Source of the DNA: a virus
Length of the DNA: 64,000 nucleotides
Direction: 5' to 3' (one strand)
Virus genome (UHGV): UHGV-1550212
Position numbers and translations under genes: made by a program. Below the pieces are notes generated by a model, which did not search any database, was not told the DNA's origin, and saw only the letters and a program-made list of their open reading frames with translations. Positions 15,568-39,781 of this stretch are shown here, one piece after another. Each line of letters begins with the position of its first letter. The first letter of the stretch is position 1.

Positions 15568-15600
15568 TATTATGTTCGAATATATGAGGACATATATTAT
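15568..15600 (-). promoter_or_regulatory. conserved structured leader element, copy 3 (core only)
   Basis: Core TTATGTTCGAATATATGAG(G/A)ACATATATTAT with inverted repeat TATGTTC/GAACATA; in the 5' leader of 15304..15540. Confidence 0.45.
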
Positions 15601-15608
15601 ATATAGAT

Positions 15609-15637
15609 ATATTACAACACGCAAATCATTTTTGCAC
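15609..15637 (-). promoter_or_regulatory. sigma70-like promoter (GTGCAA-N17-TAATAT)
   Basis: Upstream of 15304..15540; the conserved leader element lies between -10 and the ATG. Confidence 0.45.
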
Positions 15638-15663
15638 ACTTTTATAAACCAAATTTCACAAAA

Positions 15664-15969
15664 ATGCAAACACAAGAAGTTTTAGATGCAATTGACATGT
15701 CGCAGTCAGCTCGCAATTATGCGCTTGGCACTGTATGCGATGCAGAAGAGCATGAAGATGCTGTTGAAGCAGTTATCGAAGATTACATGCAAGGCGCAAG
15801 AGAAATGTACGTCAAGCTGACTACATTTGTCAATGTTAATGATGCAGTGCCTGCAAACAACTACCCAGTCATTGCAAAGCTTGCAAATGACTCATATGCA
15901 GTTGCAACGTTTGAAAATGACATGTGGTCTGTCGACAACGTAGTTGCATGGCGCAAGTTGCACATTTAA
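15664..15969 (+). CDS. hypothetical acidic protein
   Basis: One of only three plus-strand genes; followed by a bidirectional hairpin terminator. Confidence 0.5.
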   Translation: MQTQEVLDAIDMSQSARNYALGTVCDAEEHEDAVEAVIEDYMQGAREMYVKLTTFVNVNDAVPANNYPVIAKLANDSYAVATFENDMWSVDNVVAWRKLHI

Positions 15970-15981
15970 GCCCTACAGCAC

Positions 15982-16015
15982 AAAAAAAGTCCGAGCATTG
16001 CTCGGACTTTTTTTG
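15982..16015. terminator. bidirectional intrinsic terminator
   Basis: Stem GTCCGAGC/GCTCGGAC with 4-nt loop, flanked by A7 and T7; sits between convergent genes 15664..15969 (+) and 16032..19373 (-). Confidence 0.65.
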
Positions 16016-16031
16016 TTGTGCATTGATTGGC

Positions 16032-19000
16032 CTATCGAACAATCGATGTAATTGATGCTACTGGTATCGTACCAATGATTGATGTAGTTGAGCGGAAGTC
16101 TGCATAGACTTTAATGTCAAATGTGAACTCCTTGCCACCAATGTAGCATATGAAATTCATTGTTTTTGTGTATGACAGCTTATTTTGCTGAGCATTGCTA
16201 TCAATATCAGATGAACCAACTGCATCAGTCATACGAGCTTGGAACAGCAATGGTATCAACAATGCATTATTTTCGCCAGGCTTAACTACATAAGCTGCAG
16301 AATCAGTGCTATTCGAAACTTGCATTTGATTGACTGCAGTTGGATTCAACAACAAGAATGCACCACGACTATTTGCACCAACTGCATAGACATCATTGTC
16401 TGTGAATGCACATTTAGGTGCGTTTTCTGCAGTAAGTTCAAGTGGCAGAATCTGCTGATACTTTGATTTGATGACAGAATTGAACTTAGCAAGCTCTGCA
16501 AATGCTGCAGTCAATGTTGCTTTTGTTTGTTCATTCTTATTTGCTGAGTATGCAATCCATGCTGGATGCTGAACAGACATCAGATTGTATGCATCTGGTG
16601 ATACTGTCGACTTCAATGCGATTGCTTCATAATCATCGCCATTCTTATGAACGAACTTGCGATTTGCTGCTTGTGCAGAAGTATCAATGTTTTGTGTTTC
16701 TACAGTAGACGATGATGGTGTTTCTGCAGCAACGTACAGCTTTTCTGTGCCTGCTACGTTTTTCAAGCCAGCATACAATGTTTGACCCATGTATTGACGA
16801 GTGCCATACGGTGCTAAGATGTCATTGCTGTCATATGCATCGCTGTTAAGTACAACAGGTACGTCATAGACATCTGCGAAATCTTGCAGCTTGTCTGTAA
16901 TATGCTGTGACAAGTCGCCATGATATCGTGGGTACAATGAGATGTTTTCTGCACCAATGTTGTAGAACTTCAACCAATATTGTCGAGTAAGCACTTTGCC
17001 ATAGTTGTCTGCTGAAGTGATGTCAAACTTATCTGCATAAGTGCCTGCAAACAAAACATTGCTTGACCCATTCAGAATTTCTGTTTGATTGCCCTCATCA
17101 TCTACAATTGCGACTCGAAGCATTGAGCCTTGATTCAAAATGATGTCTTTGAGCTGCGCAACTTCATTGCTAAGCGACAGTAGTTTTTCATATGTAGTCA
17201 CTTTTGCAAGCTCTGATGTGAAGAAGCCTGATGCAATGTTTTGAGCATTGTGGGCGTAGTAGATGTTGTTTTCTGAGAATGCATCTGCAATATGCTTGAT
17301 AAGTCCTTTGTTCTCAAGCATATTTTCAAGAGCCACATTTTGCTTATCAATTGCAAGTTCATCTTTAAGCGTGACGAACATTGCAGAAGCTGCAAGACTT
17401 TCTGGGAACTGAATGCTGACAATGTTTGACCACTCAGACTCATTGAGCACGTTTGGATAGCCTGCTTCACCAATCGCCTTAACGCGGAACTGAACAATCT
17501 CATTAGCAGAAATTGGAATTTCAAGCTGATTGCATGAGATTGCGTCAATTGATTCTGAATTGATTGGCTCCCATTGAATGCTACCATCGACAATGATTTT
17601 GCGACGAAGTGGCGTAAATACTTCATTCCATGTGCTAAATGCTGCTGTCGTAATTGTGCCTGCTGCATTTTCGATGTCAAATGTGTCTGCCTTTGCTACT
17701 GTGCCATTCAATGATGCATATCTGTACTGCACCTTGAATTGCACAATGTTTTGTGCTGCAGTAAACCTACTGATTGCAGGGTCTTGTACCGGTAAGAAGC
17801 CTCGAACTCTGAACTTTGGATTGTACAATGCGTCATATGCAGCACCATTGATATTCAGCATCTCATCAATGATATTTGTGAGTGTTTGCAGTCGTTCTGC
17901 TCTTTGCTGAGTCAATGTAACATATTGTGTAGATGCTTTTTGACGTTCAACGTCATTCTTGAAATTATTTGTATTGAGCTTTGACATCACAGATGCGATA
18001 TCAGAGTCAAGTACCGACATTTCTTGCTGAACTGCTCGTTTTTGATTGTACAATGACAAAATTCGAGATTTGTCAGTGTTGTCAATCAAATGCGTGTTAA
18101 GTTGAATGACTTTGAATGCTTCTGCTGACAATTGTAGACGATTTGGCTTAATTGCATATTGCGATGGCGCAAGCATATCAGTAGTCAATGCTGCAATATA
18201 AGCGCCAATTGATGCGTCGCCATGTGACAACATATACGAGTTTGCATTGACAAGCTCATTTGTTGCAGTACGAATTGTAAGTGTTGCAGTGTCAATCAAA
18301 ACTGCTGGGCTGTACTGAGCTACTGTGTTGTATGCATCATGCACAGGCGACAAGAACAGCACGAATTTTTCAGAATGTCGAAGTGGCACTTCAACGACTT
18401 TTCTAACAACAGGCTCTACAAAGACGAGGTCAGTGACTTCTACATTCAATGCATTCAAGCCTGCAGTACGCTGCAGTATGCATGTTTGTGACAGTTTGTC
18501 AATTGAGACAATTTGCAGTAATACTGAACCAGTCGGGTCTGATAACGTGTCACCGACTTTCAATGTCAGTGAACCGGCAGCCTTTGCGTCAATTGCATCA
18601 TATACAATGCTGTCAAGTTTGACAGCGATTGTGCCATTGTTCGCATTTTGCTTCTTGAGAATTTTGAAGCTGCCACTTGATGCTGCTCGTCGTGGTCGCA
18701 AATTAACTGTGAAGTCTTCAAGAGTATAGTCATCATCAGTATGCCAGCCATGCGCATCAATTTCAGCAAGCAATGCAGCATGGCTCATTTCAATGCCTGT
18801 TTGTGCCACAATTTGCTGCAATGCAGCAAACATGGCGTCTGAGCATATGTACTTTGTAACTTGACATTGTTTAAGATACGATGATGCTTGACCAGTCACA
18901 TCAATTTGCACGTGCATACCAAGCGCTGTTGTGCGTTCAAGCATATCATTGCCAAGTGCGACAACATTGTTATCTTCTGCTATCGTGCCTTGCAAAGTTT

Positions 19001-19373
19001 TCAAAGTCTCAGGCTGATTCAACAAGCTCATATGCACCATTGTACGCATATTGTTGTTTGCATCTACAAGTTGTGCATACAACTGCTCGCCATTATTTAA
19101 GCCTGTCAAGACTTTCATGTTTTGCTCAATGACAGCCATGCGACGTTGAATTGACGCAAAGCTTGGTACAGTAATGCTTGTTGTGCTGCCATCGTCATTT
19201 GTCAATGTTATTGTGACTGTATCTTCTGATGATGACACTGCAGCTTGCAGCACATCAAGGTATTGCAGACTATTGTCATACAGTTGCTTAATGTCTGACA
19301 GCAATTGTTGCATTGCATTTGTTGAAACTTCTGACATATGCTTAAAATGTGGTGTTTGAATATGTACAAACAA
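16032..19373 (-). CDS. large hypothetical protein (1113 aa), possibly virion-associated
   Basis: Long uninterrupted ORF, Ser/Thr/Asn-rich with a central coiled-coil-like stretch; no P-loop or catalytic motif recognised. Confidence 0.6.
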   Translation of the reverse strand: MFVHIQTPHFKHMSEVSTNAMQQLLSDIKQLYDNSLQYLDVLQAAVSSSEDTVTITLTNDDGSTTSITVPSFASIQRRMAVIEQNMKVLTGLNNGEQLYAQLVDANNNMRTMVHMSLLNQPETLKTLQGTIAEDNNVVALGNDMLERTTALGMHVQIDVTGQASSYLKQCQVTKYICSDAMFAALQQIVAQTGIEMSHAALLAEIDAHGWHTDDDYTLEDFTVNLRPRRAASSGSFKILKKQNANNGTIAVKLDSIVYDAIDAKAAGSLTLKVGDTLSDPTGSVLLQIVSIDKLSQTCILQRTAGLNALNVEVTDLVFVEPVVRKVVEVPLRHSEKFVLFLSPVHDAYNTVAQYSPAVLIDTATLTIRTATNELVNANSYMLSHGDASIGAYIAALTTDMLAPSQYAIKPNRLQLSAEAFKVIQLNTHLIDNTDKSRILSLYNQKRAVQQEMSVLDSDIASVMSKLNTNNFKNDVERQKASTQYVTLTQQRAERLQTLTNIIDEMLNINGAAYDALYNPKFRVRGFLPVQDPAISRFTAAQNIVQFKVQYRYASLNGTVAKADTFDIENAAGTITTAAFSTWNEVFTPLRRKIIVDGSIQWEPINSESIDAISCNQLEIPISANEIVQFRVKAIGEAGYPNVLNESEWSNIVSIQFPESLAASAMFVTLKDELAIDKQNVALENMLENKGLIKHIADAFSENNIYYAHNAQNIASGFFTSELAKVTTYEKLLSLSNEVAQLKDIILNQGSMLRVAIVDDEGNQTEILNGSSNVLFAGTYADKFDITSADNYGKVLTRQYWLKFYNIGAENISLYPRYHGDLSQHITDKLQDFADVYDVPVVLNSDAYDSNDILAPYGTRQYMGQTLYAGLKNVAGTEKLYVAAETPSSSTVETQNIDTSAQAANRKFVHKNGDDYEAIALKSTVSPDAYNLMSVQHPAWIAYSANKNEQTKATLTAAFAELAKFNSVIKSKYQQILPLELTAENAPKCAFTDNDVYAVGANSRGAFLLLNPTAVNQMQVSNSTDSAAYVVKPGENNALLIPLLFQARMTDAVGSSDIDSNAQQNKLSYTKTMNFICYIGGKEFTFDIKVYADFRSTTSIIGTIPVASITSIVR

Positions 19374-19400
19374 AAAGACTGCTGCAAATTATTGCAGCAG
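19366..19400 (-). terminator. intrinsic terminator
   Basis: 11-bp stem GACTGCTGCAA/TTGCAGCAGTC with 4-nt loop, then UUUUUGUUU on the minus strand. Confidence 0.6.
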
Positions 19401-19423
19401 TCTTTGATAATTGCTTGTTTATG

Positions 19424-20317
19424 CTATGTCAATGCAATAAAGACATCACCAGATTGCTCAGCCTCAAGCTCTTTTTCAACTGTCTGTTGCATTGTTTGAC
19501 CTTTTGACGCAAGTCTATCAAAGTTAATGCGAACATTGCCGGGCAACTTGAAGTCATATGTGCCAATGATATCTGCAAGTTCTTGCATGCATTGACCAGT
19601 GCAGTATCTCAAGAAACGTCTGTCTTCATACAATGACTGCAGTGGCACTCTTACCCAACACATCAACACCAAATCAGACCCTTCATTGTCACCAAGAATG
19701 TTCAGCTTATGACTAAATCTGTTGAAGTTATACGTGATTGTTCGTTGCAAAATGCTTTCATACGTGCCAATTTCATACATTGTCACCCACAAGTCATCTG
19801 CAATTGATGCATTTTGAGAACCTGCAGGCCCAGCGTAGTTAAATGACACACCGTTTGCTTCACTGTAAAAGTTAATTGAGTTGCTAAGCAGTCGTTCAAG
19901 ATAAAAGTTTGCACGACGCATTGACAGCTTATGCTGTGATTCAAGCAACTGCACATCTGATACAGCCCAGATTTGTGGCGGCAATTTGACAATTTTGTTT
20001 GCACCATCAGTCATGTCAATATCGCGAACAACAAACCAGCGCTCTTCAAGAGCAGACTCAGAATGTTCAAAAAACCATTCTGCGCATGTTTCAATGATTT
20101 GCGGCATACGAGTCTTCGGAATTGCAAAGGGCAATGCACAGCCTCGTGTGACTTCTTGAACAAGTCGCTCAATGAATCGCAAGTCTACACTGTAGTCGTA
20201 TTTAGAATTGATATTTTCGACTTCAGGCTTATTGCACTCATTTGTTGTTGCGCCTTCGACTTTCCAAGAAGTTGCGCCGTCATTGATTGGTGGCGCTGGT
20301 TTACGTTGAACTTTCAT
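19424..20317 (-). CDS. hypothetical protein
   Basis: 297-aa ORF followed by a terminator at 19366-19400. Confidence 0.5.
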   Translation of the reverse strand: MKVQRKPAPPINDGATSWKVEGATTNECNKPEVENINSKYDYSVDLRFIERLVQEVTRGCALPFAIPKTRMPQIIETCAEWFFEHSESALEERWFVVRDIDMTDGANKIVKLPPQIWAVSDVQLLESQHKLSMRRANFYLERLLSNSINFYSEANGVSFNYAGPAGSQNASIADDLWVTMYEIGTYESILQRTITYNFNRFSHKLNILGDNEGSDLVLMCWVRVPLQSLYEDRRFLRYCTGQCMQELADIIGTYDFKLPGNVRINFDRLASKGQTMQQTVEKELEAEQSGDVFIALT

Positions 20318-20375
20318 GCTTGATAACGTTGAACTTTCATGTGTCTTGTCTATGGTCTACGGTGTGTGAAACACT

Positions 20376-20933
20376 CTACGGTATGATGTTGAAATTGACT
20401 GCAAGCAACAATGATGTGACATCTTCGCCCAATGGAAATGAACCTGTAGTAAAACCAACTGTTTTTGTTTGTGTATATTGGCTGCTCAAATCGAAGTAGT
20501 ATTGTGATGGCGACAATTCTGGTGTAGCATGCGGCTCAGTTTGACCATTTCGAACAACCATCAATCGTACTGGACCATTGAATGTTGCTTTATGATTCGG
20601 CAATGCAGAACCGTTGTAGTTAAGCGACATGTATTGCATCGTAATTCGAATCTGCTCAGCATATGATTTGCTAAGGTCAAGTTGCTGAGTGCCTTGAACA
20701 CGTAGAATACTTGATTGTCCAGATGACTGCCAATTTGCATACACAGATTGCTCGTTGGTCGTTATGATGGCATTGCCATCAATATCGAGTAGTTCAACAG
20801 TCATCTGACCTGTCAAGCTGATTCGATTGCCAAGATTGTTGCCTACTACTGCAATGCTAACTGAAACGGGCTTCAAAGACCCCCCCTGCGCCACATTTTG
20901 TGAACGATAGTGGTCTTGTGTAACTGTTGACAT
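20376..20933 (-). CDS. hypothetical protein with 5' poly-G tract (paralog 1)
   Basis: Track start is a TTG; first ATG at 20933 gives MSTVTQDHYRSQNVAQGGS; a G7 run (coding strand) at 20880-20886 encodes the Gly-Gly. Confidence 0.5.
   Translation of the reverse strand: MSTVTQDHYRSQNVAQGGSLKPVSVSIAVVGNNLGNRISLTGQMTVELLDIDGNAIITTNEQSVYANWQSSGQSSILRVQGTQQLDLSKSYAEQIRITMQYMSLNYNGSALPNHKATFNGPVRLMVVRNGQTEPHATPELSPSQYYFDLSSQYTQTKTVGFTTGSFPLGEDVTSLLLAVNFNIIP
20880..20886 (-). repeat. homopolymeric G7 tract (coding strand) in 5' coding region
   Basis: C7 on plus strand; codons for Gly-Gly at residues 16-17 of 20376..20933. Confidence 0.8.
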
Positions 20934-20980
20934 ATCATAAAGTGTTTTGCGATGATGCAATCCACTTTATGAATGCATCA

Positions 20981-21352
20981 TCAGTTAAATAATGTTTGAA
21001 TTTTTATTGTAACGTCATTGCAGCCTTTTAGCAAGTCGACTTGAATCATATCGACAAATGCTGAACGATAACTTAAACCATTGCTGTACTGAACGTAAAA
21101 GTACTTGATATGCTCCCAATCATTTACGCAAGCTTTCGTAAAGTTATCTGACAACTGAATGCTTGTTGCTGATAGAGTCGTACATGCAACGTACGAATCA
21201 ACAAATATATGCAAGTCATTTACATTGATGTAACCAACGACATCAAGTTGATTTGTAAACGTGCTCAGCGGCAATGTCAGTATGATGTGGCCTAACTTAA
21301 CAGAGCCCCCCGCGTTTTGTGAACGATAGTGGTCTTGAGTAACGTGTGACAT
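20981..21352 (-). CDS. hypothetical protein with 5' poly-G tract (paralog 2)
   Basis: ATG at 21352 gives MSHVTQDHYRSQNAGGS; G6 run at 21306-21311; 5' nucleotides near-identical to 20376..20933. Confidence 0.5.
   Translation of the reverse strand: MSHVTQDHYRSQNAGGSVKLGHIILTLPLSTFTNQLDVVGYINVNDLHIFVDSYVACTTLSATSIQLSDNFTKACVNDWEHIKYFYVQYSNGLSYRSAFVDMIQVDLLKGCNDVTIKIQTLFN
21306..21311 (-). repeat. homopolymeric G6 tract (coding strand) in 5' coding region
   Basis: C6 on plus strand; residues 15-16 of 20981..21352. Confidence 0.8.
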
Positions 21353-21383
21353 ACTGTAATGAAATTGTTTGTTTGAATATGTA

Positions 21384-21995
21384 TTATGGTGTAATAATCG
21401 GTCCACCGCCAGGCAAACTTGAACATGTTTGCATATATGTGTACAACAAGTTACCTGCATTTTGCATAATGTTTGCAAACATCAATGTGATGCCTCGCAA
21501 ATCTGCTTCGCCTTCAAATGTGTTGATGAACGCTTGCTGTGCACATGCAAACATTACTGGCACAGTCGATGCACTTGTCATTGCAATCACAGGACCGCCA
21601 GGCGACAAGGGCAACACTGGTGGCGATGCAGGCACAGTTAAGTTTGTTGGAATCCATGCTGCAACTGCTGCAGCATAAGGCTTAAAGCCATTGCCAAACT
21701 TTATTGCAATGTTCTTTGGGTCTGCTTCACCTTGAAACGTTTCTATAAGTGCTTGTCTGCCTGCTTCAAATAAAGATTGCTCAAGTGCAGCAGTTGGACC
21801 TGCAGTTATTGGACCGCCAACAGGCAATCCTGTGCAAGTTGCAATGTAGCTTGCTACGCCTGTTGCAAACAATTGACTGAACTTGTTGGCAAACTTTGTC
21901 GCAATTTGTGGTCTATCATGCTCACCTTGAAAAGTTGCAGTATATGCTTGATATGCAATAGGCTGCACAGCAGCTTGCAATGTGGCACCTGGCAT
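21384..21995 (-). CDS. protein with three tandem ~70-aa repeats
   Basis: Repeats TFQGEHDRPQIATKFANKF / TFQGEADPKNIAIKFGNGF / TFEGEADLRGITLMFANIM, each followed by a PxGGP segment; start set to the ATG abutting the upstream stop. Confidence 0.5.
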   Translation of the reverse strand: MPGATLQAAVQPIAYQAYTATFQGEHDRPQIATKFANKFSQLFATGVASYIATCTGLPVGGPITAGPTAALEQSLFEAGRQALIETFQGEADPKNIAIKFGNGFKPYAAAVAAWIPTNLTVPASPPVLPLSPGGPVIAMTSASTVPVMFACAQQAFINTFEGEADLRGITLMFANIMQNAGNLLYTYMQTCSSLPGGGPIITP

Positions 21996-21996
21996 A

Positions 21997-22281: not shown

Positions 22282-22283
22282 AT

Positions 22284-24681: not shown

Positions 24682-24699
24682 TGTACTCAATACAATATG

Positions 24700-29010: not shown

Positions 29011-29039
29011 TGTTGTAGAGGTTTTATATTATATATTAA

Positions 29040-29155: not shown

Positions 29156-30214
29156 TTACTGCTTCAAGCCTGTGAACAGTTCATACTTGAATGCAGGCCC
29201 TGCTGTGTAAGCCTCAAAGTAGAAGTCACCAATATTGATGCTTGCAATAGCGTCATCGACAGCTTTCTTGTAGCCTACACGTTCAATTGTCTGCTTATCG
29301 CATTTACGCCAATATGTGCTGTGCATCATAAGCGTGGGTGATGCAGCATAGTCTACTGCAAGCTGTTGTTTTGCAGTGTCAATGTGATGTTCATAGATGT
29401 GCACATCATTGCCAGTCCAAATGAACTCTCTTGCCACACAGTTAGTCAATGTTGCAACAATATGTGTAAGCAATGCATATGATGCGATATTGATGGGCAC
29501 ACCAAGACACATGTCACAGCTACGCTGAGTAAGCGCACAGTCAAGCCACATGCTTGGTACTTGAGCAGAATCAAGGCATTCTGCAGAACCATCATGCACA
29601 AGCATGCTATCATTAGCAATCTGAATTCGTTCTTCAAGAGTCATTGGCTGACAATTGAACTGAAACAGCATATGACATGGCGGCAATGCCATCTGAGACA
29701 TTTGCGCAGGATTCCATGCAGACACGACTTTGTAGCGGCCAGTTGGATTGATGACAATGTCTTTAATGCAAGTTGCAAGTTGGTCAAATCCACTGTCATT
29801 GAAGTTGCGCCACTGATACCCATAGATAGGTCCGCAATCACCATACTCAGGTTTGCTGAATTTTGTGTTGTGCAGTTCTGTGCACCAAGTGTCAAAGTCG
29901 ACATCTTCACCTGGATGCAGCTTTTGCCAATGACGATATGCATCCTGATGCCAGAACTTTGTAATGCCAAGCGTGTCAAGCGTTTTGACATTAGTGTCAC
30001 CTGACATAAACCACAGAAGTTCTCCAATGACGCCTTTGACAAACATTCTCTTGGATGTCAACAGTGGAAAGCCTTTACGCAAATCAAATCGCATTGATTC
30101 TACAAACAATGACTTTGTGCGAGGCATGTTTTCACGAGCAGGTTCCTTAAATCTGCCATGCTCAATAACATTATTAAGTACTCTCAAGTACTCAGTGTCG
30201 TGTTTGATATTCAT
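29156..30214 (-). CDS. thyA: thymidylate synthase (ThyA family, dUMP-specific type)
   Basis: ThyA blocks GELLWFMSGDTN, GPIYGYQWR, SAWNPAQMSQMALPPCH, QRSCDMCLGVPINIASYALL (Asn retained), WTGNDVHIY; ~60-aa C-terminal extension. Confidence 0.85.
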   Translation of the reverse strand: MNIKHDTEYLRVLNNVIEHGRFKEPARENMPRTKSLFVESMRFDLRKGFPLLTSKRMFVKGVIGELLWFMSGDTNVKTLDTLGITKFWHQDAYRHWQKLHPGEDVDFDTWCTELHNTKFSKPEYGDCGPIYGYQWRNFNDSGFDQLATCIKDIVINPTGRYKVVSAWNPAQMSQMALPPCHMLFQFNCQPMTLEERIQIANDSMLVHDGSAECLDSAQVPSMWLDCALTQRSCDMCLGVPINIASYALLTHIVATLTNCVAREFIWTGNDVHIYEHHIDTAKQQLAVDYAASPTLMMHSTYWRKCDKQTIERVGYKKAVDDAIASINIGDFYFEAYTAGPAFKYELFTGLKQ

Positions 30215-30875: not shown

Positions 30876-30901
30876 TCTCCTGACAGTACACTGTCATGCA
30901 A

Positions 30902-32779
30902 TCAAAAGCCTGCAAAGAAATCAGCATCAGCAGCATCTTGCTGAGGTGTCGACTCTTGTTCAATCACAAATCGACTGTGCAACTTTTGATTATGTTTTAT
31001 GTATGGCATAATGCGCCGGATTGATTCGTCAATGACAAATGTTTCACACCAGTCATTTGCATGTCGAATGCCTCGACCAACTGACTGTACGAAGCTTTGA
31101 TAGCACTTGTTGCGATACCAGCTTTCGTGATTTGCAGCCTTTGTTTTTACTACGATATCACCAAGTGACTGCCAAGGTAATTTTGCAACAATTTGACATC
31201 TACAACGATTGTCTGGTAAGTCAACGCCTTCAGTAATGCTAAAGCCTACAAGTACGTAGTTAGTGCCATCAGCAAGCATTGCAAGTTTATTTTGTTTGTC
31301 TTCAGCATTGACATATGTCAGCATTCTGCGTTTGTGCTTGCTGTTGTTGATGATATAGTTTGCAATGTCTCGTGTTGATGTGTGTATGATACAGTTGCAG
31401 TCATGTGTATCAAGAATGCTGTCAATCTTCTCAACAAGTCGAGGCATATTTGCTGCTTTATTCTTGTAGCTCAATGACAACGCAGGTTTGCACAGTACAA
31501 TGGGCGATTTGCTAAAATCCCAATCAGGCTCCATGTAGAATGCTACATAGTTTTTGATGCCATTGAGCGTAGCAAATGTATCAATGTCACCAATTGTCGC
31601 TGACATCCACAATTGTGCATGCGTAGCATCACTATGATGCACCAGTGTATTTGCAAGAAGCTCATCATTGACACATTTGAATTGCAAGCTGTTTGTTGCA
31701 GCATCAAGTACTACAAGCATGTCACCAGGTGATTGTTCAGTTGCATCAAGCATTGTAATGATTGAATATGACAACGTATCACAGCTGGCAACAAAGCGAA
31801 TGAACGCTTTCTCAAATTGACCAAGCATTTTGCCTGAATCCTGAAGTTCACGTAGCTTTTCATATGCAGTATGCAAAAAGTCTACAAGTTCTGACAACTG
31901 CTGTGCAAGCACTCTTGCTTCTGCTCGCATTGTTGCAATGTCATATTGTGTTGTTGCAAGCTTAATGACTGCTTTGACTTGTGCAAACACATTGTTGCGA
32001 AGTTCTACATATTTGTTCTGATTTTCAAGAGTCATGATACCTGCAATCAGTGACTCGGCCTTTGTGCAATTCTGAATGAATCGAGGACCAATTGACGTGT
32101 CAAGAAAGCCTGACAAAATGTCATCAATCTTATGGCACTCATCGAATATCGTCAATTCACGAGGCCCAAACAAGTTTTTGACGCAATTAACTTGTATCAA
32201 CCAGTACGCATAGTTAAGCACTGTGCAATTTGCTGCGGCAGCCTTTTGACGAGTCTGCAAATATGCGCATTTAGGTCCACATGGCAATGCAAGAGCTTTC
32301 TTTGATGACAACCCGTCTTGTTGGCATTTGCCCATACTGAATGGCAGACCATTGACATGACAAATGTAATTGTCTCGACCTTTGAGCATTACACAACTTC
32401 TGAATGCTGAAGTAGTTGTGTCTGCTTTAGCATTGTTGTCGTACAAATATTGTTGAATGAACTTGTCATACTGGTCTTGCAGCAGTTTATCAGAAGTCAG
32501 CACATACGACTTGAAGAATGTTGCGCAAAACATCGCAACCACAGATTTTCCCGTTCCAGTCGCTCCCTGCAATATGACATGTTGCCCATTTGCAATTGCT
32601 CGAATAATGTCGATGATTAGATGACGCTGAGTTGCATCAAAACGCGCTTGGTCCCACTTGCATGTCTTTGATTGCGCAAGATATGCTGAGAATTTATCAA
32701 TATGTGCTACAATAAGCTCATCAAGTTCTTGCTGAGATTGCTCTTCTGTCTTATGTTCTGCTGGTGTTAGTCTACCCAT
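30902..32779 (-). CDS. Rad3/XPD/DinG-like SF2 DNA helicase (Fe-S type)
   Basis: Walker A GATGTGKS, DECH box, four-Cys cluster between motifs (CHVNG...C...C...C), motif VI QSVGRGIRH; preceded by promoter and conserved leader element. Confidence 0.75.
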   Translation of the reverse strand: MGRLTPAEHKTEEQSQQELDELIVAHIDKFSAYLAQSKTCKWDQARFDATQRHLIIDIIRAIANGQHVILQGATGTGKSVVAMFCATFFKSYVLTSDKLLQDQYDKFIQQYLYDNNAKADTTTSAFRSCVMLKGRDNYICHVNGLPFSMGKCQQDGLSSKKALALPCGPKCAYLQTRQKAAAANCTVLNYAYWLIQVNCVKNLFGPRELTIFDECHKIDDILSGFLDTSIGPRFIQNCTKAESLIAGIMTLENQNKYVELRNNVFAQVKAVIKLATTQYDIATMRAEARVLAQQLSELVDFLHTAYEKLRELQDSGKMLGQFEKAFIRFVASCDTLSYSIITMLDATEQSPGDMLVVLDAATNSLQFKCVNDELLANTLVHHSDATHAQLWMSATIGDIDTFATLNGIKNYVAFYMEPDWDFSKSPIVLCKPALSLSYKNKAANMPRLVEKIDSILDTHDCNCIIHTSTRDIANYIINNSKHKRRMLTYVNAEDKQNKLAMLADGTNYVLVGFSITEGVDLPDNRCRCQIVAKLPWQSLGDIVVKTKAANHESWYRNKCYQSFVQSVGRGIRHANDWCETFVIDESIRRIMPYIKHNQKLHSRFVIEQESTPQQDAADADFFAGF

Positions 32780-32827
32780 TCTAAATGAGATTTAGATTAT
32801 GTTCGAATATATGAGAACATATATTAT
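32779..32827 (-). promoter_or_regulatory. conserved structured leader element, copy 1
   Basis: ~48-bp element with two inverted repeats (ATGTTC-N10-GAACAT and CTAAAT-CTC-ATTTAG) ending at the ATG of the Rad3/DinG-like helicase. Confidence 0.5.
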
Positions 32828-32837
32828 TTGTAAAAAT

Positions 32838-32866
32838 ATAATACTACAATCAGCATACATTTGCAC
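32838..32866 (-). promoter_or_regulatory. sigma70-like promoter (GTGCAA-N17-TATTAT)
   Basis: Upstream of the Rad3/DinG-like helicase; leader contains the conserved element. Confidence 0.45.
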
Positions 32867-33018
32867 TTTGACATAACTGATTGATACTCAATCAGTTATG
32901 AGTTTATAAAAGTTTTCAAAAGTAGGGTGTTGTTGTTTGAGTAGAGTGTTGCTGATTCTGTCAGCTGTCTTGTTTGCGTTATCGATTGCTTGCAAACTGT
33001 CAGCTGTCATAGAACATC

Positions 33019-33056
33019 ACAAAAGCAAGCAGACTACAATTGCAGTCTGCTTGCTT
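33019..33056 (-). terminator. intrinsic terminator
   Basis: 13-bp stem AAGCAAGCAGACT/AGTCTGCTTGCTT, then UUUUG; near-identical palindrome recurs at 49383-49410. Confidence 0.55.
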
Positions 33057-33077
33057 TGACATAGTTGTAATGTGAGT

Positions 33078-33434
33078 CTACTTGCGCATAAACAATGCAG
33101 CAAGCCAATTCACTGGCTTGTCAATAAGCTGCTTCCACATAGTCCAATTGTACATGCCATGCGCAAACATTGTAAGAGCAAACAACAGCATGCACATTGA
33201 TACAAGCCAATCAGCAAATGGCATATTGCCCCATCGAATGTACTCGAAAATGCCAACTTTAACAAGCTGAGCAAACAAAATGAGCATTACAGCCATTGCA
33301 AGTCGCATCCAGACTACATATTGCTGAGTCTTATCTACAAACTTTGCAATCAATGCTGGCACAAAGTACATAATGTACGCAAACAGCAACAAGCAAAAGC
33401 CTGCATACAGCAGATTAGAAATAAAAGCTCCCAT
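33078..33434 (-). CDS. multi-pass membrane protein (holin-like?)
   Basis: 118 aa, 3-4 hydrophobic helices; terminator at 33019-33056. Confidence 0.5.
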   Translation of the reverse strand: MGAFISNLLYAGFCLLLFAYIMYFVPALIAKFVDKTQQYVVWMRLAMAVMLILFAQLVKVGIFEYIRWGNMPFADWLVSMCMLLFALTMFAHGMYNWTMWKQLIDKPVNWLAALFMRK

Positions 33435-33437
33435 ATT

Positions 33438-34319
33438 TTATCGTTTGAATTTGATGAAGTGTTCAGCATCAAGGCCCTCAAATATGTACGGGTCAAGAGT
33501 TTCCCAGAAGTTTGAGTATGTCGTTGTCTTTGCAATACTTGTCTGCTTTGACAAGTTCATGTTTGGATAGCCAAGCATTGCATAGTGTCGCTCATATATG
33601 TGCATTGACGTTGCATTATGCATATAAGCGCCAAGCTTAAGACCAAGTTCATTTGCGACAAGTTCTTGCAACAAAGTGAATGCAAACTGGTCGTTACAGA
33701 AGCCCCAAATGACATCATTGCTTCGCATATATGTTGTCAAGTACAGCTTATCACCACGAACATTGAAAACAAGATTCAATGTGCACGGCATATCTTTGCC
33801 AGTGTAGTTTGCATATTGCGGCTCATAAATGCTAATAACTGCTCGTCTTGTGCATTCATGATTTCGCAAACGTTCAATGACATCTGCAATCTGCTTGTGC
33901 CAAATTGCGCCATACTGTGAATTGACATTGACGCCATCATCACTGAACTGCTTCCAACGAGGCAAATAACGTTCAATGCATTCAACTGCAGGATTGGCTG
34001 TCATATACCATGCAAATTCTGCAGCAGCATTGAGCTTTTTCCATGGTCGTACATCAATCTTGATTTGTCGCTGTGAAGGGTCCTGAATAACTACAGACAC
34101 ATTCAGCAATTCTTTTGTTCGAGTCACTGTTTGTGCATTGTTGCCCTTTGATTCTACAAACTCACCTCTACAATGAAGTTCATACAAAATTGAGCGAAAT
34201 GCTTCTGTTGCAGTGTTTTCAACGATTGTCGTCTGTTGATAGCATAAATTTGACGACAATGCTTCAGCATCATTGTACTTTATGCTGTCATTGTCATAAG
34301 GTGAATTTTTTGTGTGCAT
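33438..34319 (-). CDS. ThyA-family pyrimidine hydroxymethylase/methylase, cytosine-specific type (dCMP hydroxymethylase-like)
   Basis: ThyA-like blocks EFAWYMTANP, YGAIWHKQ, TRRAVISIYEP, DMPCT (catalytic Cys), YMRSNDVIWGFCNDQFAF where the ThyA Asn aligns with Asp; start trimmed to 34319 to avoid a 116-nt overlap. Confidence 0.55.
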   Translation of the reverse strand: MHTKNSPYDNDSIKYNDAEALSSNLCYQQTTIVENTATEAFRSILYELHCRGEFVESKGNNAQTVTRTKELLNVSVVIQDPSQRQIKIDVRPWKKLNAAAEFAWYMTANPAVECIERYLPRWKQFSDDGVNVNSQYGAIWHKQIADVIERLRNHECTRRAVISIYEPQYANYTGKDMPCTLNLVFNVRGDKLYLTTYMRSNDVIWGFCNDQFAFTLLQELVANELGLKLGAYMHNATSMHIYERHYAMLGYPNMNLSKQTSIAKTTTYSNFWETLDPYIFEGLDAEHFIKFKR

Positions 34320-34344
34320 ATTTTGGGATGTTTGTTTTTTATTA

Positions 34345-35439
34345 TCATACAACGATAGTATCTCGTTTGCAATCTGTTTTGTCAAATATTGAACAACAAT
34401 ACGATGCAGATTGTTCTTTGATTTCAAGAGCTTCATCATTATCAAGTGATGAAATGCCATCTATGTATGCTTTTGCATTGCCAGCAATGTCATCATTTGT
34501 TAACAACGCTGCACGACGTTCAGTGCCAAAGAAGCCAAAGCACAATTGATGTTGCAGTGCTTCACGAGAAGTCTTGTCATCAAACTCTGATTTCATGTGT
34601 TGCATAAATTCGACAATATCATCAATGTCGCATTGAGTAAAGTCAATGCACAATTTATGCATGTACTTGAATCGTTTGTAGTCTGTTGCAAGAATTTCTG
34701 GGTGCACAATGAACAACGTCTTTTTGCTGTCTATTGGATTTGCAATGACTGATGCTTGAACATAATCGACAAGCATACCAGATTCACGAAGTTGCTCAAT
34801 TGTTTTGCCAAACACATGCCCAAGCGTGTCATCAAACCACTTCAAGTATGCTTCACTGTCTTCATCTTTTGACGCGCCAACAATGTAAATCTCATTGACT
34901 CCAAGTGCTTTGAGACGAGTATCAGACAACATAGTATTCAATTGATGCTGCACGTACAGCATTGGGCTGCTATGCAAAACCGTTTTAACAATCTCACAAG
35001 CAATGTCCATATATGCATAGTCAAGCTTTGCAGATTTTGACACATACACTGCACGTTGCTGCAATGGCTCAATTGCCGAGCATGTAGTTACAAAGTTGCC
35101 AACACATTCTGCTACTGCAATGTCATGCAAGTCATCTGCAATGTACACAATACTTGACAAGTCATCAAATGTTTGAACAAGTTGCTGAAGCTTTGTTTTG
35201 TAATTGCAGAGCATCAATGACTTGATGTTGCAATTACTTAGCATTGTCTTGATGAGTCGTTGACCTGCTTCAGTGCTGTCACCAGAAATGACATGCACAT
35301 CGCAGTCAAACCAGTTCAGCATGTCAATTGCATGCCGAACACCATATTGCATTTGTTTTGCAAACTTACCAGATTCATTGAACAGCATTTCACCTGACAT
35401 AATGCCGTCAAAGTCACATACGATTTGAAGTCTGTCCAT
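34345..35439 (-). CDS. HAD-superfamily (KdsC-like) sugar-phosphate phosphatase domain protein with unknown C-terminal domain
   Basis: IVCDFDGIMSGEMLFNESGKF (DxDG motif I), VHVISGDS, YIADDLHDIAV (motif IV), resembling KdsC/YrbI-type phosphatases. Confidence 0.5.
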   Translation of the reverse strand: MDRLQIVCDFDGIMSGEMLFNESGKFAKQMQYGVRHAIDMLNWFDCDVHVISGDSTEAGQRLIKTMLSNCNIKSLMLCNYKTKLQQLVQTFDDLSSIVYIADDLHDIAVAECVGNFVTTCSAIEPLQQRAVYVSKSAKLDYAYMDIACEIVKTVLHSSPMLYVQHQLNTMLSDTRLKALGVNEIYIVGASKDEDSEAYLKWFDDTLGHVFGKTIEQLRESGMLVDYVQASVIANPIDSKKTLFIVHPEILATDYKRFKYMHKLCIDFTQCDIDDIVEFMQHMKSEFDDKTSREALQHQLCFGFFGTERRAALLTNDDIAGNAKAYIDGISSLDNDEALEIKEQSASYCCSIFDKTDCKRDTIVV

Positions 35440-35443
35440 GCTG

Positions 35444-35749
35444 CTACAATTTTGAAGTTAAGTCAATTCGAATTTTGTCTGCATTGCTTTGGTCTACAAA
35501 TCTGTCATCAAAGAAACATTCAACTACGACAAGCTTCTTTGAATTCACAAATTCAATTAGCGATTTTTGCATTGCATCAAGCTGTTTCATGCATTTGCAA
35601 AAACTGCTGTATGACATGATTTGCTTTGGTGACATATCAAATGCATCCGCAATTCGCTGATGAGCAATCTTTTTTGATGTTGCAATAATGACATCTGCTT
35701 TGTTATCATTTGCATGATTGCCAAATATCGCAATATGATAAACTTTCAT
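35444..35749 (-). CDS. hypothetical protein
   Basis: Start set to ATG at 35749 (MKVYHIAIFG...); alternative start at 35776. Confidence 0.4.
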   Translation of the reverse strand: MKVYHIAIFGNHANDNKADVIIATSKKIAHQRIADAFDMSPKQIMSYSSFCKCMKQLDAMQKSLIEFVNSKKLVVVECFFDDRFVDQSNADKIRIDLTSKL

Positions 35750-35803
35750 TGTATGAGTGATTTTACTGTTATACATTTATGTTATATATGCACATTGTGC
35801 CAG

Positions 35804-38800
35804 TTAACAAATTGATGATGTGCCATCAGTGTTTGCTACAACTGTCAATGCGCTATCAAACTCATCTTGCTGTAACACATGGTCAACTATGAGTGTTTTG
35901 CGAATTGCAGAAAGCTTAGTAAGCAACTGCATCAACACTTGCTGATAATTGATGGTGTTGACGTCATGCTCAGCGCCAACAATCTGCCCGTTGCTAAGCT
36001 TGCCGCTAATTTCATCAATGAGCAAGATGTTGCCAACTTTGTTTAAGCGTTGAGTCAAAATGAGATGCACGATTGCAAGACCTGCGAAAGTCCCTTCCAT
36101 ACCAGACATTTGACTTACACTTCGAATTGACTTCGAGCCCATCAAGTCAATCATCTTTAGCACATTGTTGTCATTGATGTCAAAGAACACTCGGTAGTTC
36201 AATGAATCAAGCAAATCATTGAGCTGTGCATTCAGTGATGTTGCAATTGCTGCAAAGACATATGAAACTAAGCCTCGTTTGCTTGTGCACTGCTTATATG
36301 CATTGTACACCAAGTTTGCAATGTTCCACTTTTTCGAAGCTTGCAAATCTTTCTTGAGAGCTTCAATTCGCACATTGTTTGCTGACAAGTCTGCTTGCAT
36401 TGTTGCAATTTCTGCATTGATGCTTAGCAGTTTTGAGTTTGCTTCAGTTTCATGCTGCTTAGCATCATCAATGTCGACTTGCAATGCAGCGTTTGCCACA
36501 ATATGCTGCTGAGTTTGCTGTGCATGTTCAAGTGCAAATGCTGCAGCAGTCTTGTCAATCTCAAGTTGTTTAAGAGTAGACTCATATGATGCTTTCTTAT
36601 CATATTCTGCTTGAGCAATTTCAAGTTCAGCATTTATTGCAGCCAGTTCTGATTCTACTGCAGATTTTGATTGCAATACATCTTGCTTTGCTTGTTCAGC
36701 TTTACGTTTGATGTCTGCAAGTTGATTTGTGATATCTGCAATTTGCGTTTTGACTGCTTCAACTTCAAGCAATGTTGCTGCAGTAGCCATTGGCTGTGCA
36801 ATGAATGCATCCAAGTCTCTTTGCGCATTGACTACAGTTCTTTGCAAGTCATTAAGCTTTTCTGCATGCATATCATATGCAGCTTTATGTGCTGTATTCA
36901 GTGCAGCAATTATTGCATTTGAATCTGTGACATCAATGATTGCTGCTTGCAATTGCTCAATCTCATACTTCAAATTGCCAATTTTGACAACATTCTCATT
37001 GAATTGCTCTGTCTTTTGCGCGTATTCTTGACGCAACTTAGCAAGCTCAGTTGACAACCACAGCTTGTATGCTTGCCCTGTGCCAGATGTCAAATCATTT
37101 GTGCACACAGGACATTTATCATTTTCAAGTTGCTTTTGCTTGTCTATAACATTGTCGATGTTTGTTTTTGCAGCAGATACTTCTGTTCTAAGTGCATTTT
37201 GAACAGTGTTGATGTCTTCAATTTGCTTTTGCAAAGCATCTATTTTTGCCCGAGTGTCTGCATTATATGACTTGCCAAGATTTACCAGCACAGAATCAAT
37301 GCGCTGCTTTGCTGCATCATATGCAAGCTTTGATTCATCAAGCTTTGTTCTGTACAATGATTCTGCATGCGCAACTTCTTTCTGCACTTTTGCAGATAGC
37401 TCATTCTGTTTTGTAAGCAGCTCAGCATATGTATTGTGCAGCTGTGAGCCAGATGCTATGACATTTGTGTATGCTGCATTAGCTTCATTGTCAATATTAG
37501 TGAGTTGTTGCTCAATCTGCGCTTTTACTGTTTGCAATTTAGACATGTCTTGCAATGCAAGTGCAGCAATGTCAAGCTCAACTTTGCGAATCTTTGCAAC
37601 GATGCTATCGACATTTGCTGTTGCATCTTCTACAGTTAAAATATCTGCAGGAATTTGATGCAGTCTTTTTGAGAGCTCTTCTACTTTTGCACGTGCTTTT
37701 GTAAGTTTTGCAGACCATTCCCTTTGATTATCTTGTCGTAACTGCAAAGAGTCATTGAGTTCATTGCAAGTTGTATTGAGAGACTCAAGTTCTGCTTTTA
37801 TTGCGACATCAGTCAATGCGGGCTTACTAAGGCCATCAAACAATGCGGCCTTTGCAGCATCATTAGAATTGCCCAGTTGCACGAATGTGTTGATGCCAAG
37901 AGTATCAAGCAACCAGTCATTCAATGAATTTGAATCCATTGCAATGATTTGGTCAAGTAATGTCTGATTGATGCAGACATATCGCGACAATTCCCAGATA
38001 GAACCAAAGATTGCGTATAGCGTGTCTTTGATTTCATGCTGTGGCACTACGTAGTCATCTGACAATCTTACAAGCTGCACAGTCTCATTGACTGCTGACA
38101 CGTTATCTCGCCATGAGCCATCTGCATTTATTCGAGAGCCCCGTTTGAATCTACGTTCAAGTGTTCGAGTTAATTTGTAGTGAACATTTTGACCAGCTAC
38201 TACATGTACAAATACACAAGATGCTTCAAGCTTATCATATGACTCATTGTCAATCAATTTGTCATTGAAGTATGTCAAAGCGTTCTGCTTTGTTGCTGCA
38301 GAAGACTGTCCAGCGTCAATAAAGCCAGTCAGCAGCCATTTAATGAGTCTGAAGATTGTTGTTTTGCCATTGCCGTTGTTGCCTCTAACTTGTGTAAGCT
38401 GTGCAAGATTGTCAAAGCTGACATCGACATCTTTCAATGCCATGAACTGATTTGCTTTGACATTTTGAATGACGTATTTTGCAACTTCAGTGTCAAAAGA
38501 CAATTTATCAATTTGCTCATCAATCAATGACTTGAACATGTCAACAAACTGCTGAGCGTCTTCAGTAGCAACTATAGCATTGCGTTCAATGTACGCATTG
38601 ACCCAGTCAAGTGCAGCATCTTTAAGCCATTCAGCAGTTTGAACTTTTTGCAGCAAATTGTCGCCATTTGCATCTACAGCATTGATTGAATCAATGACAG
38701 CAGAATCATACAGAATGTCAATTGCGGCAACAACGTATGAACTTACAAGATTCTGTGCAATGCGCTCAACAATGCCAGACAGTTCGGGCTTTGTGACCTT

Positions 38801-39730
38801 TGACTTGATTTTGATTTTGTTGATGCGACCAGGATTGATGAGTGCAATCTTATCTGTTTTGATGTCATTGTCAATTGTGATTGTATGATAATGCACAAGC
38901 TGCTCAAGCGAATGCCACTCTACTACAATTCGCTTGTTGTCAATATCGATGTCAAGCAAGTTGTAGCCATGTTCTGCAGTGCCCTGTTGCGTTGCAGTGT
39001 CATTCAACAAATAGTCGCCTTCACCAAAATCTCTGACAATTGGCGAGCCGCAGTATGTCAATGTCTTGGTGCCAGAAGTCCATATTGCATGTTTGTGAAT
39101 ATCACCCATTGCAACAAAGTTGCTGTGAAACTGTGTTGCATCTATACGACTGTCATTGTCACCACGAACAATGCAGTCATCAAAGTTGACGCAATTCTTT
39201 ACAGGGTCATGGAACAGCTCAATAACACACATTGATGACAATGCAGCAATCTGCGATTCGTCAAGTGATGCCCAAGGCGAATATGTGCCACCAGACCACT
39301 TCTCATTTTGAGCCCATACTGCAGCAGCAAAACCAGGTGCAAGCAGTTCAACTCTTGAACTGTTGATATACTTGATTCGCTTGTCATCAATTGCAGTTAC
39401 AAGCTTGTCAATGCTATCTGTCCACTGCATTTGTGAACCATCACCAGCATCAAATGTGTTATCACGTTGCTTCAAATCATGATTGCCAGCAGTAATGACA
39501 ATTTGAAGCTTGTCATTGACTTCAAGCATGCCTTTGAGCAGCTTAACAAACAGCGACTCTTCAAGTGAATTGCTGTTCCACTGCTCAAACACATCGCCAA
39601 CAATAAACACAAACTCAACCGACTTTGCTTTGTCAATTAGTTGTTTGTTGATGTGCTCATATTCTACGAAACGTCGTAAATGCCCTTGTCGAACATTATA
39701 TTGAATGTCTGCTATGTGAAGTGCTTTCAT
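35804..39730 (-). CDS. fused SbcD-SbcC (Mre11-Rad50-like) nuclease/ATPase
   Basis: N-terminal calcineurin-like phosphoesterase motifs (HIADIQ, IVGDVFE, TAGNHD, GDIHKH); Walker A GNNGNGKTT; long coiled coil with CPVC zinc hook; C-terminal LLIDE Walker B. Confidence 0.8.
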   Translation of the reverse strand: MKALHIADIQYNVRQGHLRRFVEYEHINKQLIDKAKSVEFVFIVGDVFEQWNSNSLEESLFVKLLKGMLEVNDKLQIVITAGNHDLKQRDNTFDAGDGSQMQWTDSIDKLVTAIDDKRIKYINSSRVELLAPGFAAAVWAQNEKWSGGTYSPWASLDESQIAALSSMCVIELFHDPVKNCVNFDDCIVRGDNDSRIDATQFHSNFVAMGDIHKHAIWTSGTKTLTYCGSPIVRDFGEGDYLLNDTATQQGTAEHGYNLLDIDIDNKRIVVEWHSLEQLVHYHTITIDNDIKTDKIALINPGRINKIKIKSKVTKPELSGIVERIAQNLVSSYVVAAIDILYDSAVIDSINAVDANGDNLLQKVQTAEWLKDAALDWVNAYIERNAIVATEDAQQFVDMFKSLIDEQIDKLSFDTEVAKYVIQNVKANQFMALKDVDVSFDNLAQLTQVRGNNGNGKTTIFRLIKWLLTGFIDAGQSSAATKQNALTYFNDKLIDNESYDKLEASCVFVHVVAGQNVHYKLTRTLERRFKRGSRINADGSWRDNVSAVNETVQLVRLSDDYVVPQHEIKDTLYAIFGSIWELSRYVCINQTLLDQIIAMDSNSLNDWLLDTLGINTFVQLGNSNDAAKAALFDGLSKPALTDVAIKAELESLNTTCNELNDSLQLRQDNQREWSAKLTKARAKVEELSKRLHQIPADILTVEDATANVDSIVAKIRKVELDIAALALQDMSKLQTVKAQIEQQLTNIDNEANAAYTNVIASGSQLHNTYAELLTKQNELSAKVQKEVAHAESLYRTKLDESKLAYDAAKQRIDSVLVNLGKSYNADTRAKIDALQKQIEDINTVQNALRTEVSAAKTNIDNVIDKQKQLENDKCPVCTNDLTSGTGQAYKLWLSTELAKLRQEYAQKTEQFNENVVKIGNLKYEIEQLQAAIIDVTDSNAIIAALNTAHKAAYDMHAEKLNDLQRTVVNAQRDLDAFIAQPMATAATLLEVEAVKTQIADITNQLADIKRKAEQAKQDVLQSKSAVESELAAINAELEIAQAEYDKKASYESTLKQLEIDKTAAAFALEHAQQTQQHIVANAALQVDIDDAKQHETEANSKLLSINAEIATMQADLSANNVRIEALKKDLQASKKWNIANLVYNAYKQCTSKRGLVSYVFAAIATSLNAQLNDLLDSLNYRVFFDINDNNVLKMIDLMGSKSIRSVSQMSGMEGTFAGLAIVHLILTQRLNKVGNILLIDEISGKLSNGQIVGAEHDVNTINYQQVLMQLLTKLSAIRKTLIVDHVLQQDEFDSALTVVANTDGTSSIC

Positions 39731-39731
39731 A

Positions 39732-39781
39732 TTCTAAATGAGATTTAGATTATGTTCGAAATATATGAGAACATATATTAT
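39732..39781 (-). promoter_or_regulatory. conserved structured leader element, copy 2
   Basis: Near-identical to the 32779-32827 copy (one A insertion); immediately upstream of the SbcD-SbcC ATG. Confidence 0.5.

Follow-up and report, generated by a model that had tools for sequence, protein, structure and literature searches.

What is the role of the short, near-identical sequences that precede three operons of one gut phage? The window analysed here, 64,000 nucleotides (nt) of the virus genome UHGV-1550212, contains such sequences in the leaders of the genes for a DinG/Rad3-type helicase, an SbcD-SbcC fusion nuclease (SbcCD) and a small membrane protein. A sequence-only reading had taken them for a common operator or translational control site, with a logic comparable to that of the RegA or gp32 sites of phage T4. 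We name the repeated 27- or 28-nt unit E. On the minus strand, which carries nearly all genes of the window, E reads ATATGTTCTCATATATTCGAACATAAT, that is, ATATGTTCTCATATATT(T)CGAACATAAT. We propose, tentatively, that E acts in cis as a regulatory site that is functional, yet dispensable and specific to this species, and that it may be read sequence-specifically, as operator-like duplex DNA, by a dimeric factor. Such a site belongs to a familiar class, the promoter-proximal dyad or leader elements, and is not a new kind of system.

Position and conservation of the E element

There are three copies of E in the window and two in a related 175-kb genome from IMG/VR, all at operon starts. In the window these are site A (small membrane protein), site B (helicase) and site C (SbcCD) (Table 1). 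A 29-nt core pattern with at most three mismatches yielded two ungapped matches, compared to 0.00 expected from 100 shuffles; the third copy, at site C, is set apart from this pair by a 1-nt insertion. The near-identity of the three elements and their location between the -10 box of a promoter and the ATG were borne out, as were the identities of the three genes (domain matches, hydrophobic stretches). Nor is E a generic repeat scattered over the genome, since it is confined to the three gene starts.

Upstream of each copy stands a promoter of the family TGCAAA-N11-13-GT(T/A)GTA(C/A/T)AAT, which has at least 13 members in the window. E starts 13 nt after the -10-type box at sites A and C and 18 nt after it at site B, is directly preceded by ATAAT in all three cases, and ends about 18-33 nt before the ATG (28 nt at site A). 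As other members of the family have only 16-21 nt from the -10-type box to the ATG, E is probably transcribed, with the start of transcription within a few nt of the box.

Two parts make up the element: a perfect dyad of 8 bp, AATATATG-N4-CATATATT, and behind it a tail of 10 nt, CGAACATAAT, that does not vary. There are three overlapping dyads within E, and only this one is kept in all variants. The more obvious inverted repeat, ATGTTC/GAACAT, turned out not to be the conserved one: in each of the four variants at site A its left arm has mutated, and the corresponding hairpin was rejected as a conserved structure.

Conservation was analysed in about 13 conspecific genomes from gut metagenomes, recovered by exact-protein look-ups. 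Their SbcCD genes are 94-96% identical at the nucleotide level; in one genome, L028, SbcCD is 100% identical to the window. No variable sites were observed among the 27 positions of E at the helicase locus or the 28 positions at the SbcCD locus (five lineages each), compared to about 10% variable sites in the adjoining coding sequences. At site A, E outside the centre of the dyad has no variable sites in 23 positions; the leader just after E has five in 28, and the coding sequence 37 in 234. Overall, none of the 78 positions of E outside the centre varies, and the flanking DNA is 10-17% variable. Both 8-nt arms of the dyad are invariant, without changes of the G.U type. The unpaired tail is invariant as well, even at site A, where its alternative partner arm has mutated. 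The centre itself is TTCT at sites B and C, whereas at site A all four positions vary (TCCT, TCTT, TTTT, CCCC). An origin of this variable centre by a diversity-generating retroelement or by loop inversion was considered and set aside: there are only T/C transitions, and no inverted loop was seen.

Thus E is under purifying selection, and some function in cis is likely. The idea of a common control site holds to the extent that E is non-random, promoter-proximal and constrained; it does not hold in the sense of an indispensable site, as E is lost in conspecific phages. The extra T of the SbcCD copy occurs in every E-bearing allele of that locus and never at the helicase locus, so the copies have not been homogenised between loci. 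Moreover, it is common to three structural alleles of the SbcCD leader in diverged backgrounds, and hence E is not recent there. On the other hand, the invariance of E could in part reflect a recent sweep of leader haplotypes by recombination, a point that weighs on the operator reading discussed below.

Leader alleles and turnover of E

At the helicase site E is precisely lost in two genomes (L020, L021), where ACAAATAAT is joined directly to CTAAATCTC. The first of these is nested among E-bearing helicase haplotypes, so that E was deleted there, and the event is a loss, not a gain. Precise loss at the SbcCD locus was observed in six genomes (L003, L030, L027, L031, L034, L033), and at site A most of E is gone in L270.

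The SbcCD leader has seven modular alleles. Let P denote the promoter, PP a tandem promoter pair, H a 17-nt module next to the start codon, H' its variant, and X and X2 further short leader modules. Alleles 1, 3 and 5 (P-E-H, P-E-H' and P-H-X-E-H', respectively) carry E. Alleles 2 (PP-H) and 4 (P-H-X-X2) do not, and alleles 6 (P-X2) and 7 (a further variant) contain neither E nor H. All junctions lie at (A/T)AAT, and each leader module ends in AAT. The differences among the leaders of the 13 conspecific genomes are module insertions and deletions; the gene order at these loci is unchanged.

The distribution of E is narrow. The 175-kb IMG/VR relative has E and H at these loci only. No match to E was found in the JGI metagenomes or in 185,579 species genomes, and when viral contigs were scanned with relaxed patterns for the dyad and H, the only matches besides one related contig were chance AT-rich ones. 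In more distant relatives (L019, 63% helicase identity; L273 and L274, 43-47%) the -10-type box is the same, but there is no E, the leaders are unrelated, and the helicase and SbcCD genes share no element.

The sequence of E suggests where it came from. In a global alignment E resembles the promoter core ATATGTTGTACAATATCAACATATAAT with z = 4.2, a score reached in none of 2000 shuffles. Allele 5 is laid out like a tandem duplication, (core-H-X)(E-H'), in which the H-X module has 27 nt, like E, and is weakly similar to it. Both this phage and its relatives often carry promoters duplicated in tandem. E probably originated in a local duplication of the promoter's -10/start core and has since diverged. 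Once duplicated, it would later have come to lie at three promoters, and precise deletion between flanking ATAAT repeats would remove it. In L274, a relative at 47%, the 20-nt unit TGTTGTGTCATTTGCAATC stands three times in tandem in a promoter -35 region at about 2700-2790, which shows how common the duplication of promoter pieces in tandem is among these phages.

A possible operator-like site and its alternatives

In the reading that we tentatively prefer, a dimeric factor would bind the E duplex as in a repressor-type operator. Bound between about +5 and +35, the factor would modulate all three operons (helicase, SbcCD and small protein) jointly, at the level of transcription; we infer both the binding of a protein to E and the direction of its effect. 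The combination of invariant arms, free centre and invariant unpaired tail fits a dimeric DNA-reading factor better than a purely structural RNA hairpin. RNA-hairpin-binding proteins mostly read the loop, and a structural RNA stem should tolerate G.U-type transitions, as H' does, so it fits E less well. The placement of E, 13, 13 and 18 nt past the -10-type box, is the classical position of an operator, and the regulon would be small, with only two or three copies per genome of about 175 kb.

The operators of dimeric phage repressors (lambda, 434, P22 type) are short dyads with conserved outer arms and a free spacer. E has the same conserved-arm dyad with a variable centre, few copies per genome, and a position at or just after the -10 box or start. 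Unlike these operators, it has an additional invariant 10-nt tail, its distance from the promoter is not fixed, and it is dispensable in conspecific genomes. Furthermore, no repressor gene was found among about 30 proteins scanned, and the phage looks lytic, not temperate.

Several observations weigh against an operator. Firstly, a Pfam and PHROGs scan that took in the three operons and adjoining genes, about 30 proteins in all, found no DNA- or RNA-binding regulator and no helix-turn-helix domain. Secondly, allele 5 shifts E away from the promoter by 27 nt, to 40 nt past the -10-type box, yet E still adjoins H' and the ATG; this spacing fits a role in RNA or in the leader better than promoter occlusion. 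Thirdly, E has been lost in several lineages, and two SbcCD alleles have neither E nor H, so any regulation is non-essential. Fourthly, AT-rich sequence readily yields palindromes. Finally, the -35/-10 logic is borrowed from sigma-70, and the host probably belongs to Bacteroidia.

The close rival is a role of E as RNA, which we consider doubtful as it stands. E would then be a 5'-proximal stem-loop with an 8-bp stem and a pyrimidine tetraloop that stabilises three mRNAs or binds an RNA-binding protein, with a bistable switch or an upstream open reading frame (ORF) at the helicase and SbcCD genes. Such a role is consistent with the probable transcription of E, with the E-H-ATG arrangement that is kept in allele 5 when the distance to the promoter shifts, and with the confinement of all variation to the predicted loop and the bases directly 3' of the stem. 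RNA folding favours AAUAUAUG-UUCU-CAUAUAUU over the obvious ATGTTC/GAACAT repeat, and the leaders fold more stably than shuffled sequences at sites C (z = -3.6) and B (z = -2.1). At these two sites a second, mutually exclusive hairpin is iso-energetic with the favoured one (-4.9 versus -5.2 and -5.1 kcal/mol). However, these hairpins are weak (about -5 kcal/mol), and the folding of site A scarcely differs from that of shuffles (z = -1.0). In eight different sequences, which represent three loci and several lineages, every one of the eight pairs of the 8-bp stem is found. The same eight pairs never vary, so there is no covariation, no compensatory change and no wobble, and RNA pairing is neither supported nor excluded by it; the fully invariant unpaired tail also argues against a structural role. 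No Rfam family matched the leaders at the gathering threshold, and no known RNA families or tRNAs were found. Nor are 5' hairpins a general trait of the promoter family: significant palindromes were observed only in the E-bearing copies and in one other (61155).

Translation in this phage seems to depend on signals of the Bacteroidia type. The Shine-Dalgarno (SD) core is absent from all 71 gene starts in the window, and the leaders are G-poor with A enriched at positions -12 to -14. The absence of SD has likewise been described for Bacteroidetes; SD-less Bacteroidia tune translation by structure and avoid stray AUGs near start codons, so an upstream AUG could matter (PMC6847099). Indeed, an upstream ORF of 7-9 codons, ATG TTC TCA TAT ATT CGA ACA TAA, exactly spans E. 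However, its peptide is not conserved (MFSYIRT, MSSYIRT, MPPYIRT, MFSYISNII).

Phage T4 has translational operators of several types: the RegA sites, the gp43 hairpin operator and the gp32 leader (PMC3014915). As in T4, a leader sequence is common to genes of DNA metabolism. For E itself the analogy with RegA or gp32 fails in position, copy number and effect on the AUG. E lies about 18-33 nt from the AUG and does not form an AU-rich overlap with the start codon; RegA has dozens of sites, compared to two or three copies of E; and the host-type translation has no SD to occlude. A RegA-like protein was not found among about 30 window proteins scanned with Pfam and PHROGs, a set outside which lie about 50 other ORFs and the rest of the genome. 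Whether E is there or not, the predicted accessibility of the start codon does not change at any of the three loci. Thus E was rejected as a start-codon-masking element, and a translational mechanism of the RegA/gp32 type is not indicated for it; the result speaks for the operator reading and against the RNA role.

The module H is a better candidate for translational tuning. H is separate from E and, among the three sites, is common to the helicase and SbcCD leaders only. It is H, not E, that abuts the AUG at two genes, as in hairpin operators of the gp43/MS2 type, and it resembles the gp43 hairpin in this respect. At SbcCD, H with the flanking CAUA/UAUG is predicted to sequester the start codon. 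The variant H' differs by two transitions, and pairing is kept via G.U wobbles, on the sense strand only; this observation also favours RNA action in these leaders. The sequence-only reading had placed two inverted repeats in each copy, the second ending 2-3 nt before the start codon. This is correct for SbcCD (2 nt), but H directly adjoins the ATG of the helicase gene (0 nt) and is absent from site A.

The 5'-terminal stem-loops of the E. coli ompA leader type stabilise mRNA. Like them, E would form a small hairpin a few nt from the predicted 5' end and apart from the ribosome-binding region. Unlike them, the sequence of its stem is itself invariant, the hairpin is weak (-4.9 kcal/mol), and at the helicase gene it lies about 8 nt from the predicted 5' end.

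It is improbable that E, as a paralogue of the promoter core, is still active in initiation, either as a second, downstream promoter (the -10-like TATATT and a start region) or as a sigma-dependent promoter-proximal pause element. Besides the similarity to the promoter core, E is similar to TACATATTCAAACA, which stands ahead of two other genes (19353, 21370), and E-H-ATG acts as a self-contained unit. A sigma-70 scan found TTTACA-17-TATATT (10 of 12 positions) in the helicase copy of E and TCAACA-17-TATATT (9 of 12) at SbcCD. However, such matches are not above shuffled expectation (1.7 per region), there is none at site A, the -35-like hexamer is gone in allele 5, and sigma-70 rules may not hold in a Bacteroidia-type host. 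The family-defining GTnGTA is replaced in E by TTCTCA, and E was never seen without a family promoter upstream. The sigma-70-dependent promoter-proximal pause element of lambda PR' is a -10-like sequence in the initially transcribed region. E likewise resembles the -10 region of its own promoter within the initially transcribed region, but lacks GTnGTA, and no antiterminator or downstream terminator is evident.

A low probability is also assigned to E having no function, being either a by-product of local duplication or quasi-palindrome formation, or a selfish repeat that spreads to TAAT sites, with invariance reflecting recency. The presence/absence polymorphism with precise ATAAT/TAAT junctions at all loci, the seven modular SbcCD alleles with modules ending in AAT, the weak similarity of the two 27-nt units H-X and E, and the absence of E from more distant relatives speak for this view. 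Against it stand the absence of variation at the 78 positions outside the centre in lineages whose flanking DNA differs by 4-6%, the extra T in three structural alleles, and parsimony at the helicase locus, which indicates loss. Moreover, there are only three copies, and none elsewhere in the related genome, in the species genomes or in the metagenomes searched.

Repetitive extragenic palindromic (REP) sequences, bacterial interspersed mosaic elements and miniature inverted-repeat transposable elements are small, palindromic and mobile. E shares with them the size of about 27 nt, the palindrome, the intergenic location, and the presence/absence polymorphism with short flanking repeats. Unlike them, it occurs in only three copies, in one orientation and in one position relative to one promoter family; no REP-associated tyrosine transposase or other transposase was seen among about 30 proteins scanned, and E was not found in other genomes searched. 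E does not behave as a mobile element, and slippage deletion accounts equally well for the ATAAT flank.

The least probable possibility, and a very unlikely one, is a ribosome-sensing leader switch for SD-less translation, in which translation of the upstream ORF, whose extent coincides with the two mutually exclusive, iso-energetic hairpins, would pick between them and set transcript fate or downstream initiation in the three operons.

The nearest described phenomenon is provided by the promoter-early stem-loop (PeSL) cassettes of T4-type phages, intergenic repeats that combine a terminator stem-loop with a sigma-70-like early promoter (PMC2839356, PMC4122927). In both cases short, near-identical regulatory cassettes are repeated in intergenic regions of a large lytic phage, and close relatives differ by indels and module shuffling; the phage considered here also has multi-copy sigma-70-like promoters with repeated terminator hairpins (33022-33054, 49379-49411). 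Unlike PeSL, E is placed in the leader, past the promoter, and is part of neither terminator nor promoter. PeSL recombination swaps genes, whereas here leader modules of 16-28 nt move at microhomologies of 3-5 nt.

Surrounding features and implications

Table 1. Positions of E, its parts and the associated promoters and genes in the window.
Feature	Positions	Strand	Remarks
E, site A (E_A)	15569-15595	-	27 nt, ATATGTCCTCATATATTCGAACATAAT; one substitution, TCCT for TTCT
E, site B (E_B)	32796-32822	-	27 nt; in helicase leader
E, site C (E_C)	39749-39776	-	28 nt, extra T locus-specific; in SbcD-SbcC leader
ATAAT, site A	15596-15600	-	directly precedes E
ATAAT, site B	32823-32827	-	directly precedes E
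ATAAT, site C	39777-39781	-	directly precedes E
Dyad, site A	15579-15598	-	AATATATG-TCCT-CATATATT; perfect; arms invariant; centre TCCT, TCTT, TTTT or CCCC
Dyad, site B	32806-32825	-	AATATATG-TTCT-CATATATT; iso-energetic with overlapping TATGTTC-N10-GAACATA hairpin
Dyad, site C	39760-39779	-	AATATATG-TTCT-CATATATT; in SbcCD leader
H, helicase leader	32780-32796	-	TCTAAATCTCATTTAGA; 7-bp stem, CUC loop; 0 nt to ATG (32777-32779)
H, SbcCD leader	39733-39749	-	TCTAAATCTCATTTAGA; 2 nt before ATG (39728-39730)
Promoter upstream of E_A	15609-15636	-	TGCAAA 15631-15636; -10-type TAATAT 15609-15614; 1/42 variable sites
Promoter upstream of E_B	32841-32865	-	TGCAAA 32860-32865; TAGTAT 32841-32846
Promoter upstream of E_C	39790-39818	-	TTGCAA-17-TACAAT; core ATATGTTGTACAATATCAACATATAAT resembles E
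Small membrane protein, 78 aa	15304-15540	-	ATG at 15540; two hydrophobic stretches; first gene of operon A
DinG/Rad3-type helicase, 625 aa	30902-32779	-	ATG at 32779; Helicase_C_2/DEAD_2
SbcD-SbcC fusion nuclease, 1308 aa	35804-39730	-	ATG at 39730; Metallophos and AAA_23

The phage looks like a large lytic myovirus rather than a temperate one. Megablast of the region against cultured phages gave no match; the helicase shares about 30% identity with its counterparts in jumbo phages of Chryseobacterium, Tenacibaculum and Sphingomonas. Identical or near-identical contigs, some of 123-176 kb, come from human gut metagenomes.

The promoter family looks sigma-70-like in sequence, despite the Bacteroidia-type translation signals, and the canonical Bacteroidetes promoter TTTG...TAnnTTTG is not enriched in the intergenic DNA of the window. 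Copies of the family on the minus strand include those at 3517, 7852, 8833, 13750, 15636, 29068, 32865 and 39818, and further ones at 43564, 43614, 49292, 49345, 52875, 55799 and 61155. The two terminator hairpins mentioned above, GCAAGCAGACTrCAATTGCAGTCTGCTTGC, are near-identical (94%), and each is followed by at least one family promoter, which makes a PeSL-like composite; the second is followed by three tandem promoters (about 49292-49400). Just upstream of the TGCAAA box of the helicase promoter there is a perfect 13-bp inverted repeat, CATAACTGATTGA-GTA-TCAATCAGTTATG (32872-32900). In conspecific genomes its loop changes, and one arm change still pairs as G.U.

Other leader sequences are repeated as well. 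The cassette AAACCTCTAC(A/T)ACAATG stands ahead of three unrelated small genes (15541-15557, 29011-29030 and 61090-61110, minus strand) and holds CCTC, which is anti-SD-like, not SD-like. Two gene starts are preceded, at a distance of 16-18 nt, by the identical 14-mer TACATATTCAAACA (minus strand, 19353-19366 and 21370-21383). One copy directly follows a strong terminator. Of the 14 positions, 11 agree with the right half of E; the 14-mer may represent a second class of promoters or leaders. The leader tract ahead of the plus-strand gene at 15664, a homopolymer (15655-15663), is variable in length, with 5 nt in the window as against about 20 nt in the conspecific genome L267. In an intergenic region of 362 nt, a stretch of 55 nt is repeated directly with 96% identity (62498-62552 and 62583-62637), and there is also a perfect inverted repeat of 15 bp (62460-62491); the segment 62460-62637 may be a small RNA or a regulatory region.

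Two thymidylate-synthase-like paralogues are encoded in the window, one each in the helicase and SbcCD operons, with glycosyltransferase-like genes nearby (29156-30214, 33438-34460, 40152-42547). This gene content suggests a modified pyrimidine in the phage DNA. At 54575-54740 a GCTGC-rich repeat with a 12-nt period lies in a coding region, forming a low-complexity segment of the Ala/Gly/Pro type with a local rise in GC.

The wider importance of E is limited, as it is confined to one uncultured phage species. Next to nothing is known about gene regulation in large gut phages with translation signals of the Bacteroidia type. The case offers a defined promoter family, a constrained operator-like module, and a natural allelic series with seven leader alleles and versions with and without E. 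If E is an operator, as we tentatively prefer, its binding factor would define a small replication and repair regulon. Should E work as RNA instead, it would exemplify leader control without SD, and in the improbable case of a leader switch, populations would tune expression by adding and deleting 27-nt hairpin-plus-tail modules. The regulatory leaders of this phage evolve by gain and loss of modules of about 27 nt at TAAT microhomologies, a finer-grained analogue of PeSL shuffling.

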